A stretch of 64,000 bases of DNA from positions 26,662 to 90,661 of the forward strand of contig DDPY01000054.1 of the NCBI GenBank assembly GCA_002342415.1, written 5' to 3'. The translations under genes were made by a program, and so were the position numbers. Positions 48,230 through 59,704 of the stretch are shown piece after piece. The stretch's first letter is position 1. Each line of letters starts with the position of its first letter. The stretch comes from Prevotella sp. UBA2456 (lineage in GTDB: Bacteria; Bacteroidota; Bacteroidia; Bacteroidales; Bacteroidaceae). The notes beneath the pieces were generated by a model. It saw only the letters and a list, made by a program, of their open reading frames with translations, was not told the DNA's origin and made no database searches.

Positions 48230-48378
48230 TTTCTTTGATAGTTTGATTATTCTTCCGACAAAGATACGAATAAGTGAGTAAAAAACAAAATAAATTCAAG
48301 AAAAATTTGGTGAATGACTTATTTTTTCTTATCTTTGTCGCGTAATCGTACTTATCATCCAGTATCAAAACCTAATCT

Positions 48379-50463
48379 ATGGATTTAAATATCATACTGT
48401 CATCCCAGGTAGAAGTTGTGAAACAGGCGTTCAATCCTGACCACATCGTGGTATATATTATGGCAGCATTTTTGATTAGCGTCTTTGTCCTGCTGTTTTA
48501 TAACAGGTTGTATGTCTTCAAGGAGCAGGATGCCAAGGCACGGAGCCAGAGTATGAACAATCGACTGGCGCTGGTTTTGCAGACAGGCAACCTCAAACTG
48601 TGGCTCTATGATGTGGCGAGCCGTCACTATTTCACGTTGTCCGAGAATGGCGATTACGAGCACGAATACAATCCCGTTGACTTTGCCGATTTTTTTGAGC
48701 GCGACGACTTCGAGCGTATGCGCAAGGAGGTGTTCGACATCTGTGAGGGGCGCGGTTCCTCGTCGTTTGTTAAGCTGAGGAGTAATCCGAAGAACAAGGG
48801 ACAGCAGAGCTTCTATGAGGTGAAGCTCTCGATAGTGGGCACCGACAAGAAAGGCAGGGTCAGGCAGTTGCTTGGTGTCCAGCACGATGTCACAGCCGAC
48901 ATGCTGAAGCAGAAGAAAGTGAACGAGCTGCTGTTGCGCTATCACACGGTTTTCAATACGTCGCTTATCGACATGTTGTTCTACGACAGCAACGGCGTGC
49001 TGCGCGACATCAACGACAAGGCCCTTCGCTCGTTCCATGTTCCCAACCGCGAGTTTGTGCTCAACGGGAAGTTCCTCCTCCAGAACAACCCCTTCTTCAG
49101 CAAGTTCAAGCTGGAAGATGCCAAGGACACCCGTTCCTCCTCTATCATCAACTTCAAGGACTTTCAGGACAAGCGCTACTATACTGAATCGCTCGGGCTG
49201 GAGGGTAAGATGTATTACGAGTCGACCATCAATCCTATTCGCGATGCCCAGGGACGGTTGGAAGGATTCTATATGGCAGGGCGTAATGTGACGGAGATGG
49301 TCGAGTCGTACCATCATCAGCAGGAGAGCACCAACAGGCTGCGTAAGGTCAACGCGGATATTGAGAACTATATCACGAACATCAACTATGCGCTGCGGGT
49401 GAGTGATGTCCGACTGGTGAACTACTATCCGCAGAGCTATACGCTGGAGGTGTCGAGCAATGTCAGTGGCGGCCAGCTACGACTGTCACAGCTGCGCTGC
49501 ATCCGTCTGGCCACGATACCCTTCCGTCGTGTCGTGTCGAGCATGCTCAATCGCATGGACCATCTGACACCTTATTATATATCGCACACCATCGAGACTG
49601 AGATTCGCGACAAGAAAGGCCGCCAGATATGGCTCATGTTCCACATGGTGCCTATCCGGGACAGCGAGGGCAAGGTGGTCCGCTACTTCGGTCTTTGCCG
49701 CAATATGACAGACATGGTGGAAACCGAGCGCCATTTGGCCATCGAGACCAAGAAGGCGCAGGAGACCGAGCTGCTGAAGCAGTCGTTCCTGACCAATATG
49801 AGCTACGAGATCCGCACGCCACTGAATACGGTAGTCGGTTTTGCCGAACTCTTCGAGGCTGAGCACGATGAGGCTGATGAGCCCGTCTTTGTGGAGGAAA
49901 TCAAGCGCAACTCCAACTCGCTGCTTGAGTTGGTGAACGACATCCTCTTCCTGTCGCGCCTGGATGCCAACATGCTGGAGTATAACAAGGCAGACATCGA
50001 CTTTGCCCTTATCTTCGACAGCCACTGCCAGATGGGCTGGAGCGGTGTCACTCCCAAGGTGAAGACCATCATAGAGAATCCGTACGAACATCTGGTGGTG
50101 AATATCGACTTTGAGCATTTAGGCAAGGTGATTGAGAAACTCTGCGCGAATTCGGTCCACTTCACGAGTGAGGGCTTCATCCGTGCCAAGTATGAGTATC
50201 GTCACGGCGAACTGACCATCAGCATCGAGGATACGGGTGGAGGCATAGACCCGGAGGGCCTTGCTCACGCCTTTGATCGTTTTGCCCGCGACCAGCAGGA
50301 GCGGATGTGCGGCACTGGGTTGAACCTGCCTATCGTGCAGTCGCTGGTAGAGCAGATGGGGGGCACTATCGAGCTGCAGTCGGAGCTGAACAAGGGTACG
50401 ACAGCCTGGGTGACTATCCCCTGTGAGGCCAAGCATATTGAGAAGAAACGCGAAATCATATAA
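48379..50463 (+). CDS. PAS-domain sensor kinase homolog with Tyr at the H-box (putative pseudokinase 1)
   Basis: One N-terminal TM, PAS/PAC repeats, FLTNMSYEIRTPLN, degenerate N box (EKLCANSVHF) and G2 (GTGLNL). Confidence 0.88.
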   Translation: MDLNIILSSQVEVVKQAFNPDHIVVYIMAAFLISVFVLLFYNRLYVFKEQDAKARSQSMNNRLALVLQTGNLKLWLYDVASRHYFTLSENGDYEHEYNPVDFADFFERDDFERMRKEVFDICEGRGSSSFVKLRSNPKNKGQQSFYEVKLSIVGTDKKGRVRQLLGVQHDVTADMLKQKKVNELLLRYHTVFNTSLIDMLFYDSNGVLRDINDKALRSFHVPNREFVLNGKFLLQNNPFFSKFKLEDAKDTRSSSIINFKDFQDKRYYTESLGLEGKMYYESTINPIRDAQGRLEGFYMAGRNVTEMVESYHHQQESTNRLRKVNADIENYITNINYALRVSDVRLVNYYPQSYTLEVSSNVSGGQLRLSQLRCIRLATIPFRRVVSSMLNRMDHLTPYYISHTIETEIRDKKGRQIWLMFHMVPIRDSEGKVVRYFGLCRNMTDMVETERHLAIETKKAQETELLKQSFLTNMSYEIRTPLNTVVGFAELFEAEHDEADEPVFVEEIKRNSNSLLELVNDILFLSRLDANMLEYNKADIDFALIFDSHCQMGWSGVTPKVKTIIENPYEHLVVNIDFEHLGKVIEKLCANSVHFTSEGFIRAKYEYRHGELTISIEDTGGGIDPEGLAHAFDRFARDQQERMCGTGLNLPIVQSLVEQMGGTIELQSELNKGTTAWVTIPCEAKHIEKKREII

Positions 50464-50480
50464 TCCCAAACAGGCATGCT

Positions 50481-52514
50481 ATGAGTATTCTGTCCCATAT
50501 ATTCCTACTCTCGGCGGTGAACACTCCCCCGACCCTGTCATTGGTCATGATGACACTGGTCATTATCGTGTTCATGGTTGTGCTGTTATCCAATCGCATG
50601 ATCCTGCTTCGTGTGCATCGGCGCATGAAGAAAACCGAGCATACCACGTCGATGCTGCAGAACGCGGTGGAAATCAGTGGTAACGAGGTAGTGCGCTACG
50701 ATTTGCTCGACCGCCGTATCTATAAACTCTATGGCAAGATGTTCCCTGACAAGGCACTGACGGCAGACGAATGGCGAAAACATGTACACCCAGACGATCT
50801 GGAGGAAACGCTGGAGTGGATACATCAGGTGGCGGAGGGCAGCCTGAAGCGGGCGGAGTTCTACTATCGCTGGAATTTCGATTTCACCGGCCAGTCGCCC
50901 CGCTGGGGATACATGCACAATGTCAGCGTCCCGGAATATCAGAAAGATACCAAGAAGGTCATCAGTGTCATCAGTACGGTGCTTGATGAGACTGCCCGGC
51001 AGCAACAAGAGGAGCGCGAGAAGGAACTGAGCAACAAGTATAAGCTCATCTTCGAGAACTCCATCATCGGACTCTCCTTCTATACACCTGAAGGCTGGTT
51101 GCTCGCCTCGAACAAGATGATGCGTGAGATTTGTCATTTTGAAAGCGATGAGTATGATGACTTCTTCTCCAAGACCAACCTTTTCGAACTGTCACCTTTC
51201 CGCGAGTGTTGCAATCCTGAACATTTGGAAGAACTGTGGATATGCCACCAGAGCATTGTTCCCGAGCGCGATATCCGTGACTATCTGGAAACCCGTCTGC
51301 ACCCCATCTGTGACGAGTCGGGAAAGGTGGTCTATATCGCTGTCGCTACGCGCAATGTCACGCAAGAGCGCGAGCTGTATCTGCAGTCCAAACTTACCGA
51401 CTCGCAGATACAGCAGGCCAACGAGAAGATCAAGGCCTACGAGGAGGAGCTGACCTTCATGATGGAGACTTGCGAGATGCGGGCCTGGCGCACCACTTAT
51501 AAAGAAAAGAAAGTACAGTTCCTGAAAGGTCTGAGCACTGTTGAGCGCGAGATAACTATCAGCGACTATTTGCAGTATTTCATCGACGACGGCGAGACGG
51601 TGGCCAATTATTTCGAGGAACCCGAGAAGCATTTTTCCGCGCCTATGTCCGTGCTCAGGAAGTCGCGCCCCATCTTCAACGAGGCAGAGCCGGTGATATG
51701 GTACCAGATTAACAGCGTTCCCGTCTTTAACAATCAAGGCGAACTGGTGGGCTCGTTCGGACTTATCCGAAACATGACTCCCTTCATTCAGGCTCAGGAG
51801 AAGCTGAAACTGGAGACCGAGCGTGCCAACGACTCTGGTCGCCTGAAGTCCGTGTTCCTGGCCAATATGACCCACGAGATTCGCACGCCGCTGAATGCCA
51901 TCGTGGGCTTCTCCGACCTCCTGCAGGCTATCGACTCGCCGGAGGAGAAGAAGGAGATGATTCGTGTCATTCATAACAATTGCGACATGCTGCTCCGGCT
52001 CATCAACGACATCCTGGTGCTCTCCAACTTCGATGCCAACGCGATGCAGCTCGTGCCTGGAAAGGTTGACTTCTCGCGCGAGTTCGACCTCACCTGCCAG
52101 TCGCTGCAGCAGCGCGTGCAGGAGCCTGCGGTGGAGTTCCAGAAGGACAATCCGCTGCCCTCGCTGCTCATCAATATTGATATCGGGCGCATCCAGCAGG
52201 TCATCACCAACTTCGTCACCAACGCGGTGAAGTACACCCATCAGGGCCACATCCGTGTCGGCTATCGGATGGAAGACAACGGCCTGCTGTATGTCTATTG
52301 CGAAGACACAGGCTCCGGCATCCCCAAGGAGAAGCAGGAGGCCGTCTTCGAGCGCTTCGTGAAACTGAACGACTATATCCAAGGTACTGGTCTCGGACTC
52401 TCCATCTGCAAGGCCATTGTAGAGAAGTGCGGGGGAACAATCGGTGTGGAGAGTGAGGAAGGCAAAGGCTCTACCTTCTGGTTCCGAATACCAGTAGAAG
52501 TACTTAACGAATAA
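50481..52514 (+). CDS. PAS-domain sensor histidine kinase (canonical)
   Basis: [36 protein letters not shown]. Confidence 0.92.
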
Positions 52515-52517
52515 ACG

Positions 52518-55316
52518 ATGGAAATGTTGAAGCATACCTTATTTATATTATTATTGGCTCTGATGCCCGCAGTCACGCTTTGTGCAAACGAAGGCGAGGG
52601 CTACGAGGCCTTTACCGAGGATCATCCGCTGATTTATGAAGATGCATGGGATCTGTGGCCCTACGTCTACCTCAACGGGAACGGCGAGCCGGAAGGCTTT
52701 AATGTCGACTTGCTGAAACTCATCTTCAAGGAGCTCAGCATCCCTTACATGATTAAGCTCAGTCCTACCTCTGAGGCATTGAACCACCTGAAGGCCGGAC
52801 ATGCCGATGTGACGTGCGGCATGGACGCTCATTTCCATAACGACTACGCTCAGTATGGAAAGTCCGTCATCCAGATTTTCACGCACAGCGTGCTCCATCG
52901 TAAGAACGAGCCTGCCAAGATAAAGAATGTGGAGGACTTGTCGCGCAACAAGGTCATCGTCCATGACGGCAGCTTCAGTCATCACCTGATGGTCCGTCGC
53001 GGCTGGGGAGCCAATGCCGTTCCCTATGACGATATGCAGGAAGCTGTCCGTCTGGTACACAATGAGCCTGGTCATCAGATCGTATGGAACACGCTCTCGC
53101 TTCAGGCGCTCATCCGCAAGTTCAACTACGACGACTTGGAGGTCACGCCCGTGAATATCCAGCATGGTGAGTATAAGTTCATGTCAAACAATGCGCGCCT
53201 GCTTCAGCAGATGGACAGTGTGTACACCGTGCTCAGCGCCGAGGGCAGGCTGCAGGCCATCCAGAACAAGTGGTTCTATCCCGAGCGTAAGGACTCGGGC
53301 ATCCCGTCGTGGATATGGTTGGTCATCGGCGCCCTGCTGTTGTTCGTCCTGCTGTCGCTCCTCTTCTTCGTCATCTATCGCCGCAAGGAGAAGCGCATGA
53401 CGAAGTCGCTCCGTAGCAGCAACCGCCGGCTGGCACTCATTCTGAAGACGAGTCATGTGCGGATTTGGCTCTACCATGTAGACACCAAGACCATCACTAC
53501 ATTCAACGAGAACGGGGTGGCAGACAATGACAACCTCACGCCTAACTTCTTCTTCTACTCTATGGTGAAGGAGGACTACGAGCGAATCCTGCAGGCACTG
53601 GCCAATGTCTCGCTGCAGAAGTCGGAGCGAGAGACCCTCGACGTGCGAGCGAAGGACGGTTCTCATGGCGAGCTTCACAGCCTTACAATCGGGCTCTCCG
53701 TCTTCAGTCGCGGCAAGAATGGCGTGCCTGTGGATATTATCGGTACTACCAGCGATGTCACGGAGGACAAGTTGAGGCAGCAGCAGGCTCAGGACACGAT
53801 GCTGCACTATCAGACCGTGTTCAACAGTTCGATGGTCGACATCGTGGCCTATGACGAGCATGGTGTGATAATGGATATGAACGACAAGGTGCGCCGGGCA
53901 TTATCGGGCAGTGTCGACCATATCCTTGCCTCGAAGATTACGCTGCGCGATGTGCTGGGCGCGGAGTTCGACGACTTGGAGCATCTGGACCTTACCTACC
54001 TTACGCAGCTGCTCCATTGGCCAGGCGATGAGCGCGCGCTGAGCCGGCTGTTGCAGCGCGACGAGATGTACTATGAGTTGCAGATGGCCCCCGTGCGCAA
54101 CGAACAGGGCCGCCTGATGGCGGTCTATGGCACGGGACGAAACGTGACAGAGGTGGTCCAGTCGTACAGGTTGTTGCAGCTTAATATCGAGCGTTTGCAG
54201 CATGCTACCGACGAGTTGGACCGTTATGTGCGTAATATCGACTTCGTGCTGAAGAAAGGTGGTGTGCGTATGGTCAGCTATTCGCTCGACACGCATACGC
54301 TGACGCTCTATAGTGAGATTGGTAAAGACCAGCTGACGCTGACCCAGACGCGCGCGCTCACGCTGGTATGCGACGAGTCGAAGCGCATAGCCCTGCAGGC
54401 CTTTACCAGCATGGACAACGGCACGCGCTCTACGGTCGAGGCTACGGTCAAGACGCAGTTGCGCCACGGGGATGAGGGCGACCAGCCTGCATGCCCGTTA
54501 TATCTCTACTTGTCGCTGATGCCCACCTACGGAAGTGACGGGCAAGTGACGGGCTACTTCGGCATGTGCCGCGACGTGAGCCTTATCAAGGCCACTGAGG
54601 ATGCATTGGCTCACGAGGCCGCCCGGGCGCAGGAGGTAGAGACCGTCAAGAATGCCTTCCTCCGTAATATGAGCTATCAGATTCGTACGCCGCTCAACTC
54701 GGTGGTAGGCTTTGCCGAACTCTTCGAGATGGAGCATTCGCCTGAGGACGAATCCGTATTTATTCAGGAAATCAACGACAATGCCTCGCGCCTGTTGGAG
54801 CTCATCAACGACATCCTGTTCCTATCGCGTCTGGATGCCCAGATGATAGAATACAAGCGGGAGATGATCAACTTCGCCGAGTTTTTCGAGTCGCGTTGCC
54901 AGACAGTAGGCTTCCACCATCGGAAATCGGGTGTCGACTTTGTGGTCGATGGCAATTATCAGCGGTTGGTGGTCGACATCGACATGAACAATGTGGGTAT
55001 CATCATCGACCAGATTCTTGCCAATGCCTCCGAATACACATCAGCCGGGCAGGTGCGCTCCAGCTATGACTATACGGGCGAGGCCCTGGTGATGACCTTC
55101 CAGGACACTGGTTGCGGCATGTCCGACGAGCAGCTGAAGCATATCTTCGACCGCTTTGCCTCTTCGGGCAGTCGCGGCACGGGCCTCGGCCTGAACATCT
55201 GTCAGGAGCTGGCCCAGCAGATGGGCGGCAAGATCAAGGTGCACTCTGAACTCGGCAAGGGCACCATCGTGTGGGTCACCATCCCATGCAGTTGTAGTGA
55301 AATAGTAAGGAAATAG
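52518..55316 (+). CDS. Sensor kinase homolog with periplasmic solute-binding (family 3) domain and Tyr at the H-box (putative pseudokinase 2)
   Basis: Signal peptide, WPY.Y...G.PEGFNVD...IQNKWF, TM, PAS; [14 protein letters not shown]; N box [10 protein letters not shown]. Confidence 0.88.
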
Positions 55317-55341
55317 GTGAGGAAGGAGGATTATAGAAAAG

Positions 55342-58089
55342 ATGAAGAGATATTGCCTGTATATTGCTTGTTGCTTATGGGCGCTGACAACCGCCACAAC
55401 GCTGTCGGCCAAGGACACCTTTGGATTCACCAAGGAGCATCCCCTGGTCGTCGTATGCGACTGGGACTTTGCGCCGTTCGAATTTCTGAACTCGGAGGGC
55501 ATGCCCGACGGTTATAACGTCGAAGTGCTCGACCTGATATTCAGCCGGCTGGGCATTCCGCACCAGTTTGTGATGCAGGAGTGGTATGTGGCCATGCAGA
55601 TGTTCGACCATCGCAAGGCCGACCTCATCCACGCGCTGTCGGATCACTATAATCATGCGCCGTACGTGATGACCAAGAAGTACATCAACTACTATAACGT
55701 GAGCGTAGTGCGCAAGGTCGGCACTCCGCCTCTGTTCCGTCTGGCCGACTTGTCGGAGAAATCCACGCTCATCCTCAAGAAGGACGACTATGCCGAGCTG
55801 CGCATGAGGGATATGGACTGCTCCTTCAAGAAGGAATACCGCCCGGCCAAGAGCGCGTTGCAGCGGATACGGCAGGGCAAGGGAAGATATTTCGTATGGG
55901 GCGAGGTGCCGCTGAAGCTCAAGATCAAGGAGCTGGGCCTCGACAGCCTCACGATGGACCGCATAGACATCCCGGCGGGCGAGCTGCGCATCGTCAGCTA
56001 CAACAAGGCGCTCATCGACGTCATCGATGACCAGTACACGCGGTTGGAGCAGGCCGGCGAGCTGGAGAAGATTTACGACAAGTGGTTCCACCCCGAGCGC
56101 GTCCACGACGATGCCTCCCCCGTCACGCTCTATATTCTGGGCGGGCTCATCGTGCTGGGCATCCTCATCTTCCTGCTGAACCGTCTGACCACTTTTCGCG
56201 TCCGGACGGCGGTGCGCAAGAGCGGCGAGGTGAACGGCATGATGCGTCAGGCGCTGAACATGGGCGACTACAGCGTGATGGAATACGACATCATGACGGG
56301 CCATATCCGCAACGTCTACGGAGAGCTGCTCCCGGAGCAGGGCATGTCGATGTACGAGTTCCAGCAGCGGCTGGCGCCCGAGGAACTGGAGGATTTCCAG
56401 AATTCTCTCGACCAGATGCACCGTGGAAAGATGCTCCATTGGACGATGAGGAAGCGCTTTAATGCCGGAACGGCGGAGTCGCCCGAATGGCGGATGCTCT
56501 ACGGCGAGGCCATCGTGGAATATGAGAACGACCAGCCCCGCTACATTGTGAATACGGTGAAGGACATGACCACCGAGGTGGAGACAGAGCGCCGCAATCA
56601 GGAGATTGGAGCGCGCTATATGAAGATATTCGAGACCAGCATGATAGCCATGTCATTCTATGATGCCAAGGGGCGGCTGCTCGACCTGAACCGGAAGATG
56701 CGCGAGCTCTGCGCCTTCGACGAGGACGGCGAGCGCCACTTCCGCGAGACCTCGCTCTTCGACGCGCCCCTGCTGCAGGACGTCATCTGGGAGGGCAGCC
56801 GCGAGCCGGTGCACGTCTGCCAGCACATGTACTATCCGAAGCTGGGCATCGACAAGTATATCGAGGCGCGCATCCTGCCCGTCGTCGACGATGCCGGCCA
56901 GCTCATCTACTACGTCGTCACCAGCCGCGACCTCACCAGCGAGCGCGAGATGTATATGCAGCAGCGCGAGCACGAGCAGCGTCTGCACAGCACCAATGCC
57001 GCCATCAGCACCTACGAGGAGCGCCTGCACTATCTGCTCAAGGAGTGCAACATGTATGTCTGGCAGTTCGACTTCGCCAGCCGTCGCATCAACTTCGCGC
57101 AGACGCTGGGCAAGGTGGAGTTCTCCACCAGCATCGAGGAGCACATGGAGAGCATCGCCCCCGAGGAACGCGAGCAGGCCCTCAACATCAAGACCAGCAC
57201 GGTCATGAAGGGCCAGCCCTTCAACGTGGTCCACCACTTCCTGCACACCCCGCTGAGCGACAGCCCCGGATGGTATGCCCTCAACGGACTGCCCCAGCGC
57301 GACAAGCAGGGCCGCGTGACGGGATACTACGGTCTGGCCCGCGATGTCACCTACCTCATGCAGACCCAGCAGCGCCTGCGCGAGGAGACTGCCCGAGCCG
57401 AGAACTCAGGACTGCTCAAGAGCGCCTTCCTGGCCAACATGACCCACGAGATTCGCACACCGCTCAATGCCATCGTAGGCTTCAGCGGACTGCTCCAGAT
57501 GGTCGAGGCCCCCGAGGAGCGCAGGGAGTTCATCCGCATCATCCGCAGCAACTGCGACATGCTGCTGCGACTCATCAACGACATCCTCGAGGCATCGAGC
57601 ATGGGACAGTCTATGACCATCGAACCTGAGGACATCGACCTGGCGATGGTCTTCGACGACATCTGCCAGACCCTCGAACAGCGCGTCGCAGAGTCCGGCA
57701 TACCCTTCGTCAAGGACAATCCCTACGACACCTGTCCCGCCGTCCTCGACAAGGGCCGCCTGCAGCAGATACTCACCAACTTCGTCACCAATGCCGTCAA
57801 ATACACCAAGCAGGGCCACATCCGCGTGGGCTATCGCAGGGAGGAACGTGGCGGCCGCCAGGGACTCTACTTCTACTGCGAGGACACCGGCACCGGCATC
57901 CCCAAGGACAAGCAGTCGGCCGTCTTCGAGCGTTTCGTCAAGCTCAACGACTACGTGCAGGGCACGGGCCTTGGCCTCTCCATCTGCAAAGCCATCGTTG
58001 ACCGCTGCGACGGCCAGATCGGTGTCGACTCCGAACCCGGCCACGGCTCCACCTTCTGGTTCTGGGTTCCCTCCGCACGGGATCTATAA
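55342..58089 (+). CDS. Sensor histidine kinase with periplasmic solute-binding domain (canonical)
   Basis: DFAPFEF...G.PDGYNVE...IYDKWF, TM, PAS; [29 protein letters not shown]. Confidence 0.92.
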   Translation: MKRYCLYIACCLWALTTATTLSAKDTFGFTKEHPLVVVCDWDFAPFEFLNSEGMPDGYNVEVLDLIFSRLGIPHQFVMQEWYVAMQMFDHRKADLIHALSDHYNHAPYVMTKKYINYYNVSVVRKVGTPPLFRLADLSEKSTLILKKDDYAELRMRDMDCSFKKEYRPAKSALQRIRQGKGRYFVWGEVPLKLKIKELGLDSLTMDRIDIPAGELRIVSYNKALIDVIDDQYTRLEQAGELEKIYDKWFHPERVHDDASPVTLYILGGLIVLGILIFLLNRLTTFRVRTAVRKSGEVNGMMRQALNMGDYSVMEYDIMTGHIRNVYGELLPEQGMSMYEFQQRLAPEELEDFQNSLDQMHRGKMLHWTMRKRFNAGTAESPEWRMLYGEAIVEYENDQPRYIVNTVKDMTTEVETERRNQEIGARYMKIFETSMIAMSFYDAKGRLLDLNRKMRELCAFDEDGERHFRETSLFDAPLLQDVIWEGSREPVHVCQHMYYPKLGIDKYIEARILPVVDDAGQLIYYVVTSRDLTSEREMYMQQREHEQRLHSTNAAISTYEERLHYLLKECNMYVWQFDFASRRINFAQTLGKVEFSTSIEEHMESIAPEEREQALNIKTSTVMKGQPFNVVHHFLHTPLSDSPGWYALNGLPQRDKQGRVTGYYGLARDVTYLMQTQQRLREETARAENSGLLKSAFLANMTHEIRTPLNAIVGFSGLLQMVEAPEERREFIRIIRSNCDMLLRLINDILEASSMGQSMTIEPEDIDLAMVFDDICQTLEQRVAESGIPFVKDNPYDTCPAVLDKGRLQQILTNFVTNAVKYTKQGHIRVGYRREERGGRQGLYFYCEDTGTGIPKDKQSAVFERFVKLNDYVQGTGLGLSICKAIVDRCDGQIGVDSEPGHGSTFWFWVPSARDL

Positions 58090-58212: not shown

Positions 58213-58337
58213 TTAATGCGCATTATCGATGTCGATAATGCGCATTATTCATTTCGTTGATGCGCATGACCGGAACCAATCATGATACATGGGTAAAACG
58301 AATGATGCGCATTATCCGGGAGGACGATGCGCATCAG
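58213..58337. repeat. Array of palindromic ATGCGCAT cores at ~22-bp period
   Basis: cores at 58216, 58238, 58260, 58305, 58327 with a degenerate slot near 58282. Confidence 0.85.
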
Positions 58338-58360
58338 TGACTTCAGCGATGCAGGAAGAA

Positions 58361-59704
58361 TCAGAAGAGGAAGGTGCGCTCGGCCCAGTAGCAGAGGATA
58401 CCGGCGAGATAGCCGACGAAGGCTATCCAGGTGATCTTCTTCATGTACCAGCCGAAGGTGATCTTTTCGAGGCCCATGACTACGACACCGGCGGCAGAAC
58501 CGATGATGAGCATCGAACCGCCCACGCCGGCGCAGTAGGCCAGCAGCTGCCAGAAGATGCCGTCGACGGCCATGTCGCCTGCGGCCTGAACGGGATACAT
58601 GCCCATGCATCCGGCCACGAGGGGCACGTTGTCGACGATGGACGACAGCACGCCGATGATGCCCGTCACCAGATAGTGGTTGCCCTCGAAGGCAACATCG
58701 AGGCTCTTGCCCAGCATGGTGAGCACGCCGATGGTCTCCAGACAGGCTACGGCCATCAGGATGCCGAGGAAGAAGAGGATGGTGGACATGTCAATGCGCG
58801 TGAGCATGGTGGTGACGCGCTTCTGCATGGCGCCTTTCTCCTCGGGGGCCTTCAGGTCGGCATAGAATATCTCGGTGACGGTCCACAGCACACCGAGCAC
58901 GAGCAGGATGCCCACGAACGGCGGCAGGTGGGTGATGGTCTTGAAGATGGGCACGAAGATGAGACCGCCCACTCCCAGGAAGAAGATAATCTTTCGCTGC
59001 GAGGTCGTCAGGTCGCTGGCTCCTACGGTCTGGGCCTGCGCGGCTGTAAAGGTCAGGTTGCCCTTGAGCGACAGCGACAGGATGTAGGCTGGGATGACCA
59101 TCGAGACGAGCGAGGGAATGAAAATCTCCATGATGACGCCGGCGGCCGTGATGACGCCCTTGTTCCAGAGCATGATGGTGGTGACGTCGCCGATGGGCGA
59201 GAAGGCACCGCCGGAGTTGGCGGCGATGACTACCAGTGCGGCATAGATGAGGCGGTCCTTCTGGTCGCTCACCAGCTTGCGCAGAATCATAATCATCACG
59301 ATCGAGGTGGTGAGGTTGTCGAGGATGGCCGACAGGATGAAGGTCATGAAGGCGATGCGCCACAGCAGGGCCCGCTTCGACTTGGTCTGCAGCGTGTCGC
59401 GCACAAAGTTGAAACCTCCGTTCTGGTCTACCAGCTCTACAATGGTCATGGCACCCATGAGGAAGAAGAGAGTGGTGGAAGTGGAGCCCAGGTGGTGCTC
59501 GATGACTTCGCTGACGGCTGAGGCAACCTTGTCGCCCACGGCTCCAGCCACATAGCTGCCCGGATCGAACATGAAGAGCGTCCAGCAGCCCACGAACATC
59601 AGCAAGGCAATGGCAGCCTTGTTGATTTTTGTCAGGCTCTCGATGGCAATGCAGAAATAGCCGATGCAGAAGAGGATGACGATGCAAATTGTTAATGTTG
59701 ACAT
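58361..59704 (-). CDS. nhaD: NhaD-family Na+/H+ antiporter
   Basis: FFLMGAMTIVE, LSAILDNLTT, AANSGGAFSPIGDVTT, SSIVDNVPLV, GGSMLIIGSAAGV. Confidence 0.9.
   Translation of the reverse strand: MSTLTICIVILFCIGYFCIAIESLTKINKAAIALLMFVGCWTLFMFDPGSYVAGAVGDKVASAVSEVIEHHLGSTSTTLFFLMGAMTIVELVDQNGGFNFVRDTLQTKSKRALLWRIAFMTFILSAILDNLTTSIVMIMILRKLVSDQKDRLIYAALVVIAANSGGAFSPIGDVTTIMLWNKGVITAAGVIMEIFIPSLVSMVIPAYILSLSLKGNLTFTAAQAQTVGASDLTTSQRKIIFFLGVGGLIFVPIFKTITHLPPFVGILLVLGVLWTVTEIFYADLKAPEEKGAMQKRVTTMLTRIDMSTILFFLGILMAVACLETIGVLTMLGKSLDVAFEGNHYLVTGIIGVLSSIVDNVPLVAGCMGMYPVQAAGDMAVDGIFWQLLAYCAGVGGSMLIIGSAAGVVVMGLEKITFGWYMKKITWIAFVGYLAGILCYWAERTFLF

Follow-up and report, generated by a model that had tools for sequence, protein, structure and literature searches.

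Tandem pairs of tyrosine-bearing kinase-like proteins and canonical histidine kinases in Prevotella

Two consecutive gene pairs in a Prevotella genome raise the question of why a complete sensor histidine kinase should be preceded, twice in a row, by a kinase-like gene that has tyrosine where the phospho-accepting histidine is expected. The genes lie in a 64,000-nucleotide stretch of Prevotella sp. UBA2456 (assembly GCA_002342415.1, contig DDPY01000054.1, positions 26,662 to 90,661; hereafter ‘the window’). We refer to the tyrosine-bearing genes, 1 and 3, as type A and to their histidine-bearing neighbours, 2 and 4, as type B. Comparison with relatives shows the A-B pair to be a conserved unit, and the A proteins are probably an undescribed family of ‘dead’ co-sensors that steer live neighbours.

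All four genes encode HisKA and HATPase_c domains above Pfam cut-offs, PAS domains are likewise found, and SBP_bac_3, a periplasmic solute-binding domain, is confined to genes 3 and 4. The genes are co-oriented, with intergenic gaps of 17, 3 and 25 nt. Identity to gene 1 is 38% for gene 3 and 25% for genes 2 and 4; between genes 2 and 4 it is 41%. The order is therefore A-B-A'-B', in which genes 1 and 3 are paralogues of type A and genes 2 and 4 paralogues of type B. Genes 1 and 3 depart from a canonical HisKA kinase in two respects: the acceptor is not histidine and the N-box lysine is absent; genes 2 and 4 have the acceptor histidine and intact ATP-binding boxes, with the N box TNAVKYT in both. 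A preliminary description of the locus, made by reading the DNA alone, had reported the Tyr/His/Tyr/His alternation, the two sets of paralogues, the degenerate N boxes of the tyrosine copies with the GTGLNL G2 box of gene 1, and a solute-binding domain in both members of pair 2 and neither of pair 1. The alternation was confirmed to the base, in coordinates and in H-box residues, and the identities, the motif reading and Pfam agree with the remainder.

The two pairs differ in their sensors. Gene 1 has a short N-terminus with one hydrophobic segment and no periplasmic domain. In genes 3 and 4 the SBP_bac_3 domain is placed between a signal peptide and a transmembrane segment, followed by PAS and the kinase core (in gene 3: signal peptide, SBP_bac_3, transmembrane segment, PAS, HisKA, HATPase_c). 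The two solute-binding domains are homologous, at 28% identity, and among solved chains 3h7m, a deposition titled ‘Sensor protein’, comes nearest to the one in gene 3 (1.8e-14).

The A-B pair as a conserved unit

The tyrosine of genes 1 and 3 is not a chance substitution, because it is present in all of the 120 nearest relatives of gene 1 in the database (120/120), which reach down to 61% identity and are labelled Prevotella sp. wherever named. Type-A matches are present in 119 of 401 species of the genus (~30%), including 36 of 183 high-quality genomes. Among 200 genomes spread over the family, clear relatives were found solely in this genus and in one sister genus.

Gene order was read in the window and 30 further fetched loci, 31 in total, which contain 47 A-type genes, one of which runs off its locus. 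A B module lies directly downstream and on the same strand in all 46 with readable downstream DNA. The A-to-B gaps measure -4 to +54 nt, with a single exception of 223 nt, and the acceptor of the paired B is histidine in every case. This pairing extends to the sister genus and to Xylanibacter oryzae. The architectures of the partners are also always matched: both are short or both long, and the solute-binding domain is absent from both or from neither. Short pairs that lack the domain are placed apart on the tree of A modules (loci L080, P0156 and L082), and agreement in length between partners, short or long, is seen again in independent lineages. The proposal in the preliminary description that the unit duplicated and retained is a pseudokinase/kinase couple of matched architecture is thus borne out by both the adjacency and this recurrence.

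Variations on the arrangement were also observed. Some genomes carry a third A-B pair, the A member of which has glutamine at the acceptor. The B gene of pair 1 is fused to the A gene of pair 2 in one frame of 1583-1594 amino acids in one genome at least (locus L014, 5440-10191, minus strand) and in an independent metagenome protein, P0129, and similarly long frames occur in two more genomes. Downstream of the fusion in L014, the pair-2 kinase is broken into pieces of 658 and 223 amino acids. Another locus (L016:6027-8477) has two extra short genes (411 and 400 amino acids) between pair 1 and pair 2, the second with glutamine at the acceptor (NMRQELRTPLS).

Purifying selection on A is as strong as on B. 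Between orthologues, the proportion of nonsynonymous differences (pN) is 0.16-0.25 against 0.67-0.76 for synonymous differences (pS), the same for A as for B; these proportions are given in place of dN/dS ratios, which are unusable because synonymous sites are saturated. The check suggested in the preliminary description, namely whether A genes stand directly upstream of a histidine-type gene and are under purifying selection across relatives, therefore gave a positive answer on both counts. Within pair 2, mean pairwise identity in A is 61% for the solute-binding domain, 70% for the domain of dimerisation and histidine phosphotransfer (DHp) and 53% for the catalytic (CA) domain; the corresponding values in B are 52%, 75% and 73%.

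Were the A genes functionless duplicates heading for loss, the missing acceptor histidine and the degenerate N and G2 boxes would be expected. Yet over 100 species have intact frames of 650-970 amino acids, pN lies far under pS, conservation of A equals that of B, the sensor and DHp of A are better conserved than its CA domain, and the pair has been duplicated and kept several times. The conservation data already contradict such decay, which we regard as exceedingly improbable; the preliminary description was right that the tyrosine genes are not decaying. The higher conservation of the sensor and DHp relative to the CA domain instead indicates that selection preserves A as a sensor joined to a pair of helices for dimerisation and docking, and not as an enzyme.

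Acceptor residue and catalytic motifs

The acceptor was followed across a FastTree phylogeny of 197 kinase modules, built without the acceptor column from 150 representatives (50% identity, exhaustive search) and the open reading frames of the fetched loci. The A superclade holds 114 tips (support 89), and its sister group is formed by the Prevotella B kinases and their relatives. Outside A the acceptor is histidine in 77 of 77 tips, which include the B clade (47 tips, support 98). Within A it is tyrosine in 78 tips, histidine in 17, phenylalanine in 8, glutamine in 8, and alanine, arginine and isoleucine in one each. Parsimony requires 26 changes, with 14 separate lineages for histidine, seven for phenylalanine and two for glutamine; a tyrosine or phenylalanine root costs 26 changes and a histidine root 27.

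The acceptor position of A is freed from the need for histidine and toggles by single-base steps. As tyrosine interchanges with histidine, phenylalanine, glutamine, isoleucine, alanine and arginine, its hydroxyl is not what is conserved. Tyrosine is favoured, not required, and the conserved trait is ‘no obligatory histidine’ rather than tyrosine phosphorylation. The retention of tyrosine that had been claimed for the two window genes holds for the family in so far as tyrosine is its commonest residue, but not as a fixed state.

These replacements bear on the idea that the tyrosine is a true phospho-acceptor, serving a tyrosine-based relay on the histidine-kinase fold. Such a relay would account for tyrosine being the majority state and for its fixation among the gene 1 orthologues. 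However, phenylalanine, glutamine, isoleucine, alanine and arginine replace it in intact paired genes, the ATP-binding motifs of A are degenerate, and DivL of Caulobacter crescentus, the precedent for tyrosine at this position, does not autophosphorylate (PMC4211667). We consider a tyrosine relay very improbable.

DivL (PDB 4q20) resembles A in its acceptor tyrosine, its multi-PAS and DHp-CA architecture and its retained acceptor-flanking residues. It modulates another kinase, CckA, without kinase activity of its own; non-tyrosine variants occur, such as alanine in Magnetospirillum, and its tyrosine has been called unique (PMC4211667). DivL keeps all of its N, G1, F and G2 boxes (PMC4211667), whereas the A family loses the N-box lysine and often G2. 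It is also a single gene unpaired with its target, and CckA is a hybrid kinase, which B is not. The DivL structure ranks fifth, among generic kinases (5.2e-22), with no specific kinship to A. The precedent named in the preliminary description thus stands as an analogue, with tyrosine for histidine, but not as a relative.

The catalytic motifs of A have been lost unevenly. The N-box lysine survives in 8 of the 114 members, the N-box asparagine in 76 and the third G2 glycine in 57; in the G1 box, the aspartate is kept in 109 and the two glycines in 107 and 111. All scored N-, G1- and G2-box residues are intact in only 4/114, and the histidine-bearing members are no more intact than the others (0/17 with all motifs). 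In the B clade every motif is intact (47/47). The phenylalanine-bearing A member of X. oryzae (strain DSM 17970) is basal in the A clade, and both its N and its G2 box are intact, which suggests that the acceptor was lost first and that the catalytic domain decayed later.

The intact boxes of this basal member and the retained G1 residues would also suit a split kinase, an obligate heterodimer in which the ATP-binding domain of A phosphorylates the histidine of B in trans. FasB and FasC of group A Streptococcus provide the model: two adjacent sensor-kinase-like genes are functional only jointly, two-hybrid assays give heterodimers and no homodimers, one partner supplies the phospho-accepting histidine, His246 of FasC alone is required and the kinase domain of FasC can be dispensed with (PMC12675982). 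The roles of FasB and FasC are complementary and their regulator, FasA, lies in the same operon (PMC12675982), whereas B is complete alone, both halves of A are degenerate and the A-B genes have no linked regulator. The Fas sensor architecture, with six transmembrane segments, is unrelated to that of A-B. Defects in A and B are therefore not complementary, given that B is intact throughout and A lacks the N-box lysine in 106/114 and often the G2 glycine; the CA domain is, moreover, the least conserved part of A. Phosphorylation of B by A appears improbable.

Contact between the partners and signal output

The reading of the conserved pairing, matched architectures, motif pattern and purifying selection that we hold, with moderate confidence, to be the best as a whole is that A is a non-catalytic co-sensor acting on B via its DHp. 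B is a normal HisKA sensor kinase, and A belongs to a large family, confined to the Prevotella lineage, that descends from a duplicated kinase. We infer a physical contact in which A would associate with the downstream B by way of the DHp, giving a heterodimer or hetero-oligomer, with the paired periplasmic solute-binding domains of pair 2 adding a further contact. As to the direction of control, A would set the kinase/phosphatase balance of B, such that each couple integrates two inputs; the output would be an unlinked receiver protein to which B signals.

Such tiny or overlapping junctions between genes, in so strict an order, are in keeping with subunits of a single complex. In addition, the charge of the DHp hairpin is reversed by class, with glutamate in 104/114 A members (an acidic loop) and lysine or arginine in 47/47 B members, a reversal that would disfavour A-A and favour A-B contacts. 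Complex prediction with the DHp-CA parts of A and B gave a score of 0.51, against 0.00 for the best control, and was rated ‘weak support’. Among solved complexes 58 of 80 attain that mark, as do 2 of 110 mismatched pairs; scores of 0.60 or below occur in just 7 of these 80 complexes and in both of the mismatched pairs. The runs share at least 93% of contacts, with a predicted local distance difference test (pLDDT) value of at least 83 for the partner.

Several points weigh against the co-sensor reading. As kinase homodimers are solved and any two HisKA kinases resemble them, the pass in complex prediction may stem from this likeness. Two sensors that act separately on one regulator would likewise account for the adjacency and the matched architecture, and B, fully equipped by itself, appears from its motifs to be capable of catalysis without A. 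Seventeen of the 114 A members carry histidine again, and some of these may still be phosphorylated. Finally, the tree comes from FastTree alone, and its representatives were the 150 most similar to gene 1 together with the fetched-locus frames.

Control of one sensor-kinase-like protein by another through DHp-DHp contact, and not by phosphotransfer to a regulator, has a precedent in RetS-GacS of Pseudomonas aeruginosa (PDB 6dk7, 6dk8; PMC8498467). The genes for RetS and GacS are unlinked, show no conserved pairing and encode hybrid or unorthodox kinases, and RetS retains its histidine and has receiver domains; its match to gene 1 (2.8e-17) is of the generic kinase-core kind and weaker than the best matches. 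Degenerate kinase domains without catalytic residues are also found in the subfamily-2 ethylene receptors of plants, which work beside subfamily-1 receptors. Those receptors, unlike A-B, are eukaryotic, recognise another ligand through another domain, signal via CTR1 and are encoded by unpaired genes. In their periplasmic part, genes 3 and 4 resemble 3h7m and the Venus-flytrap sensor kinases BvgS and EvgS. The latter are homodimeric and unorthodox, with two binding domains per chain, a receiver and a histidine-phosphotransfer (Hpt) domain, whereas in genes 3 and 4 the two chains differ and each has a single binding domain, one of the chains being without the acceptor histidine. The A-B pair is functionally like DivL, RetS and FasB/FasC and belongs to none of them. 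A search of the literature on Prevotella pseudokinases or tandem kinases found nothing relevant.

The surface around the acceptor is preserved in A, with Glu at +1 in 102, Arg at +3 in 111, Thr at +4 in 101 and Pro at +5 in 113 of the 114 members, and helix 1 from +1 to +12 is nearly identical between A and B. This would be expected if A docks the same receiver as B via its H-box surface, either as a dedicated phosphatase or as a DivL-like sensor of receiver phosphorylation. DivL retains the same surface for binding DivK~P, but is itself without phosphatase activity (PMC4211667). Weighing this alternative calls for a view of the possible receivers.

No receiver (REC) domain is encoded in the window flanks of the four-gene locus or in the 24 loci first fetched (314 kb), in agreement with the earlier claims that the locus has no response regulator and that its regulator is unlinked. 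X. oryzae has a separate pair of an OmpR-type regulator and a kinase, located 2 kb upstream of its A-B genes. Receiver-less AraC-family regulators adjoin three basal or divergent A-B pairs (L036:11509-12378, L039:4200-5675 and the P0156 locus), and not those of the window; the AraC-family regulator of X. oryzae overlaps the end of B and precedes rhamnose-utilisation genes.

The source genome (2.99 Mb, 85.6% complete) encodes nine receiver proteins without a fused kinase core, treated here as unpaired. An Hpt domain was not detected at this degree of completeness, and a classical phosphorelay is therefore not supported. Co-occurrence was scored in genomes of 90% completeness or more, 22 of them with A and 13 lacking it. 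Two candidate partners were rejected: REC-HTH_8, present in 13/22 genomes with A and 3/13 without, and REC-DUF5932, which is universal (35/35). REC-SpoIIE, represented by two proteins in the source genome, is found in 18/22 genomes with A and 1/13 without. Two single-domain receivers (22/22 and 21/22 against 0/13) and a small sensor-less hybrid kinase (20/22 against 0/13) also track A. Counts for the hybrid kinase refer to frames of ~420 amino acids, matched through a receiver 46-55% identical to the single-domain receiver of contig C48. In the source genome this kinase has 416 amino acids (HisKA, HATPase_c, REC; C40:21277-22389, L035:3260-4510, minus strand), no sensor domain detected by Pfam and the highest-scoring HisKA match of that genome.

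One single-domain receiver, of 122 amino acids, is 93-100% identical across 89 of the 401 species, and keeps this identity across species whose A and B are only 45-75% identical to those of the window. It is encoded at C56:101051-101416 (L028:3049-3417, minus strand), just upstream of the genes for a Bac_transf sugar transferase and an OEP-like protein, and is far more conserved than the other proteins compared. A strong A match is present in 83 of the 89 genomes that bear it. In a marker tree, from which two rows extracted in the wrong frame (G344 and G083) were disregarded, the A-bearing genomes form one clade, to which the receiver is likewise confined. Because of this single clade, the co-occurrence counts as one event and can be a single lineage event, that is, a lead only.

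This limits what the receivers can say for docking: the two single-domain receivers do track A, but as one evolutionary event, and docking alone leaves the matched loss of periplasmic domains, the strict order and the tiny gaps unexplained. We regard it as rather unlikely. A convergent DivL-like circuit of gut Bacteroidota, in which the tyrosine pseudokinases read the phosphorylation of the 122-residue receiver and relay it to the adjacent kinase, is more doubtful still. Such a circuit would, if true, combine PAS inputs and those of two solutes with a feedback signal inside a single hetero-complex.

Genomic setting and significance of the family

The coordinates of the locus are given in Table 1. 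The Bacteroidota promoter consensus is -33 TTTG / -7 TAnnTTTG, and a candidate of this type precedes gene 1. A terminator-like hairpin follows gene 4, and no comparable hairpin was found between the four genes; the simplest reading of these signals would be a single operon.

Table 1 Features of the four-gene locus (positions in the window)
Feature	Position	Strand	Details
Candidate Bacteroidota-type promoter	48306-48337	+	TTTG 48306-48309, 20-nt spacer, TATCTTTG 48330-48337; 41 nt before gene 1 ATG
Gene 1 (A type, pair 1)	48379-50463	+	694 aa; HisKA and HATPase_c, PAS domains (Pfam)
Gene 1 acceptor, Tyr476	49804-49806	+	TAC; H box NMS-Y-EIRTPLN
Gene 1 degenerate N box	50146-50166	+	ANSVHFT; Asn kept, Lys to His
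Gene 1 G2 box	50311-50328	+	GTGLNL
Gene 2 (B type, pair 1)	50481-52514	+	677 aa; canonical HisKA kinase (Pfam HisKA, HATPase_c, PAS)
Gene 2 acceptor, His465	51873-51875	+	CAC; N, G1, F and G2 boxes all intact
Gene 3 (A type, pair 2)	52518-55316	+	932 aa
Gene 3 periplasmic SBP_bac_3 domain	52656-53276	+	Residues 47-253; Pfam 2e-14
Gene 3 acceptor, Tyr720	54675-54677	+	TAT; N box ANASEYT (Asn kept, Lys lost)
Gene 4 (B type, pair 2)	55342-58089	+	915 aa; canonical kinase with SBP_bac_3
Gene 4 SBP_bac_3 domain	55444-56091	+	Residues 35-250; Pfam 2.1e-15
Gene 4 acceptor, His702	57445-57447	+	CAC
Terminator-like hairpin	58214-58257	+	15-bp stem and T-rich tail; 125 nt past gene 4 stop

Upstream of the locus lie frr and rsgA on the opposite strand, and downstream a CitMHS transporter gene and a GH2 enzyme gene. 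A cluster of GATGCGCAT / AATGCGCATTAT motifs occupies window positions 58214-58345, downstream of gene 4. Of the five matches to GATGCGCAT in the window, four fall within 80 bp; some motifs of the cluster build the 15-bp hairpin and the remaining ones sit just before the end of the convergent CitMHS gene. An open reading frame of 410 amino acids without a Pfam match (58289-59521, plus strand) runs antisense to the CitMHS gene (58361-59704, minus strand) and is probably a spurious frame in a GC-rich stretch.

Among the 24 HisKA matches of the source genome, tyrosine occupies the acceptor solely in genes 1 and 3. Another HisKA-like protein, in a 654-residue frame, has aspartate there (HITDELRAPMN; C15:77822-78019, minus strand). 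No specific NCBIfam family is matched at cut-off, the best partial matches being hybrid-type kinases such as TorS, BarA, ArcB and LuxQ. Under automatic annotation all these proteins of the A-B pairs are named ‘histidine kinase’, a label that is misleading for half of them.

Pseudo-histidine kinases have so far been a few single cases, namely DivL, RetS-like modulators, PsmA and a ChrS variant. Here a whole family is found, in ~30% of the 401 sampled species, each member wired to a live partner gene; the A-B family is a large, gene-paired form of this theme, and it is new. So are the toggling between tyrosine, histidine, phenylalanine and glutamine on the tree, the order of decay, the independent matched losses of periplasmic domains and the reversal of hairpin charge. 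The histidine-to-tyrosine replacement of DivL is not unique, having arisen again in an unrelated lineage. With natural acceptor variants (tyrosine, histidine, phenylalanine and glutamine) and pairs both with and without periplasmic sensors, the family is a ready comparative system for asking what role a kinase fold plays once kinase activity is lost, and how heteromeric sensor kinases integrate two ligands. Its host is a dominant genus of the gut and rumen, the signalling of which is almost unstudied.

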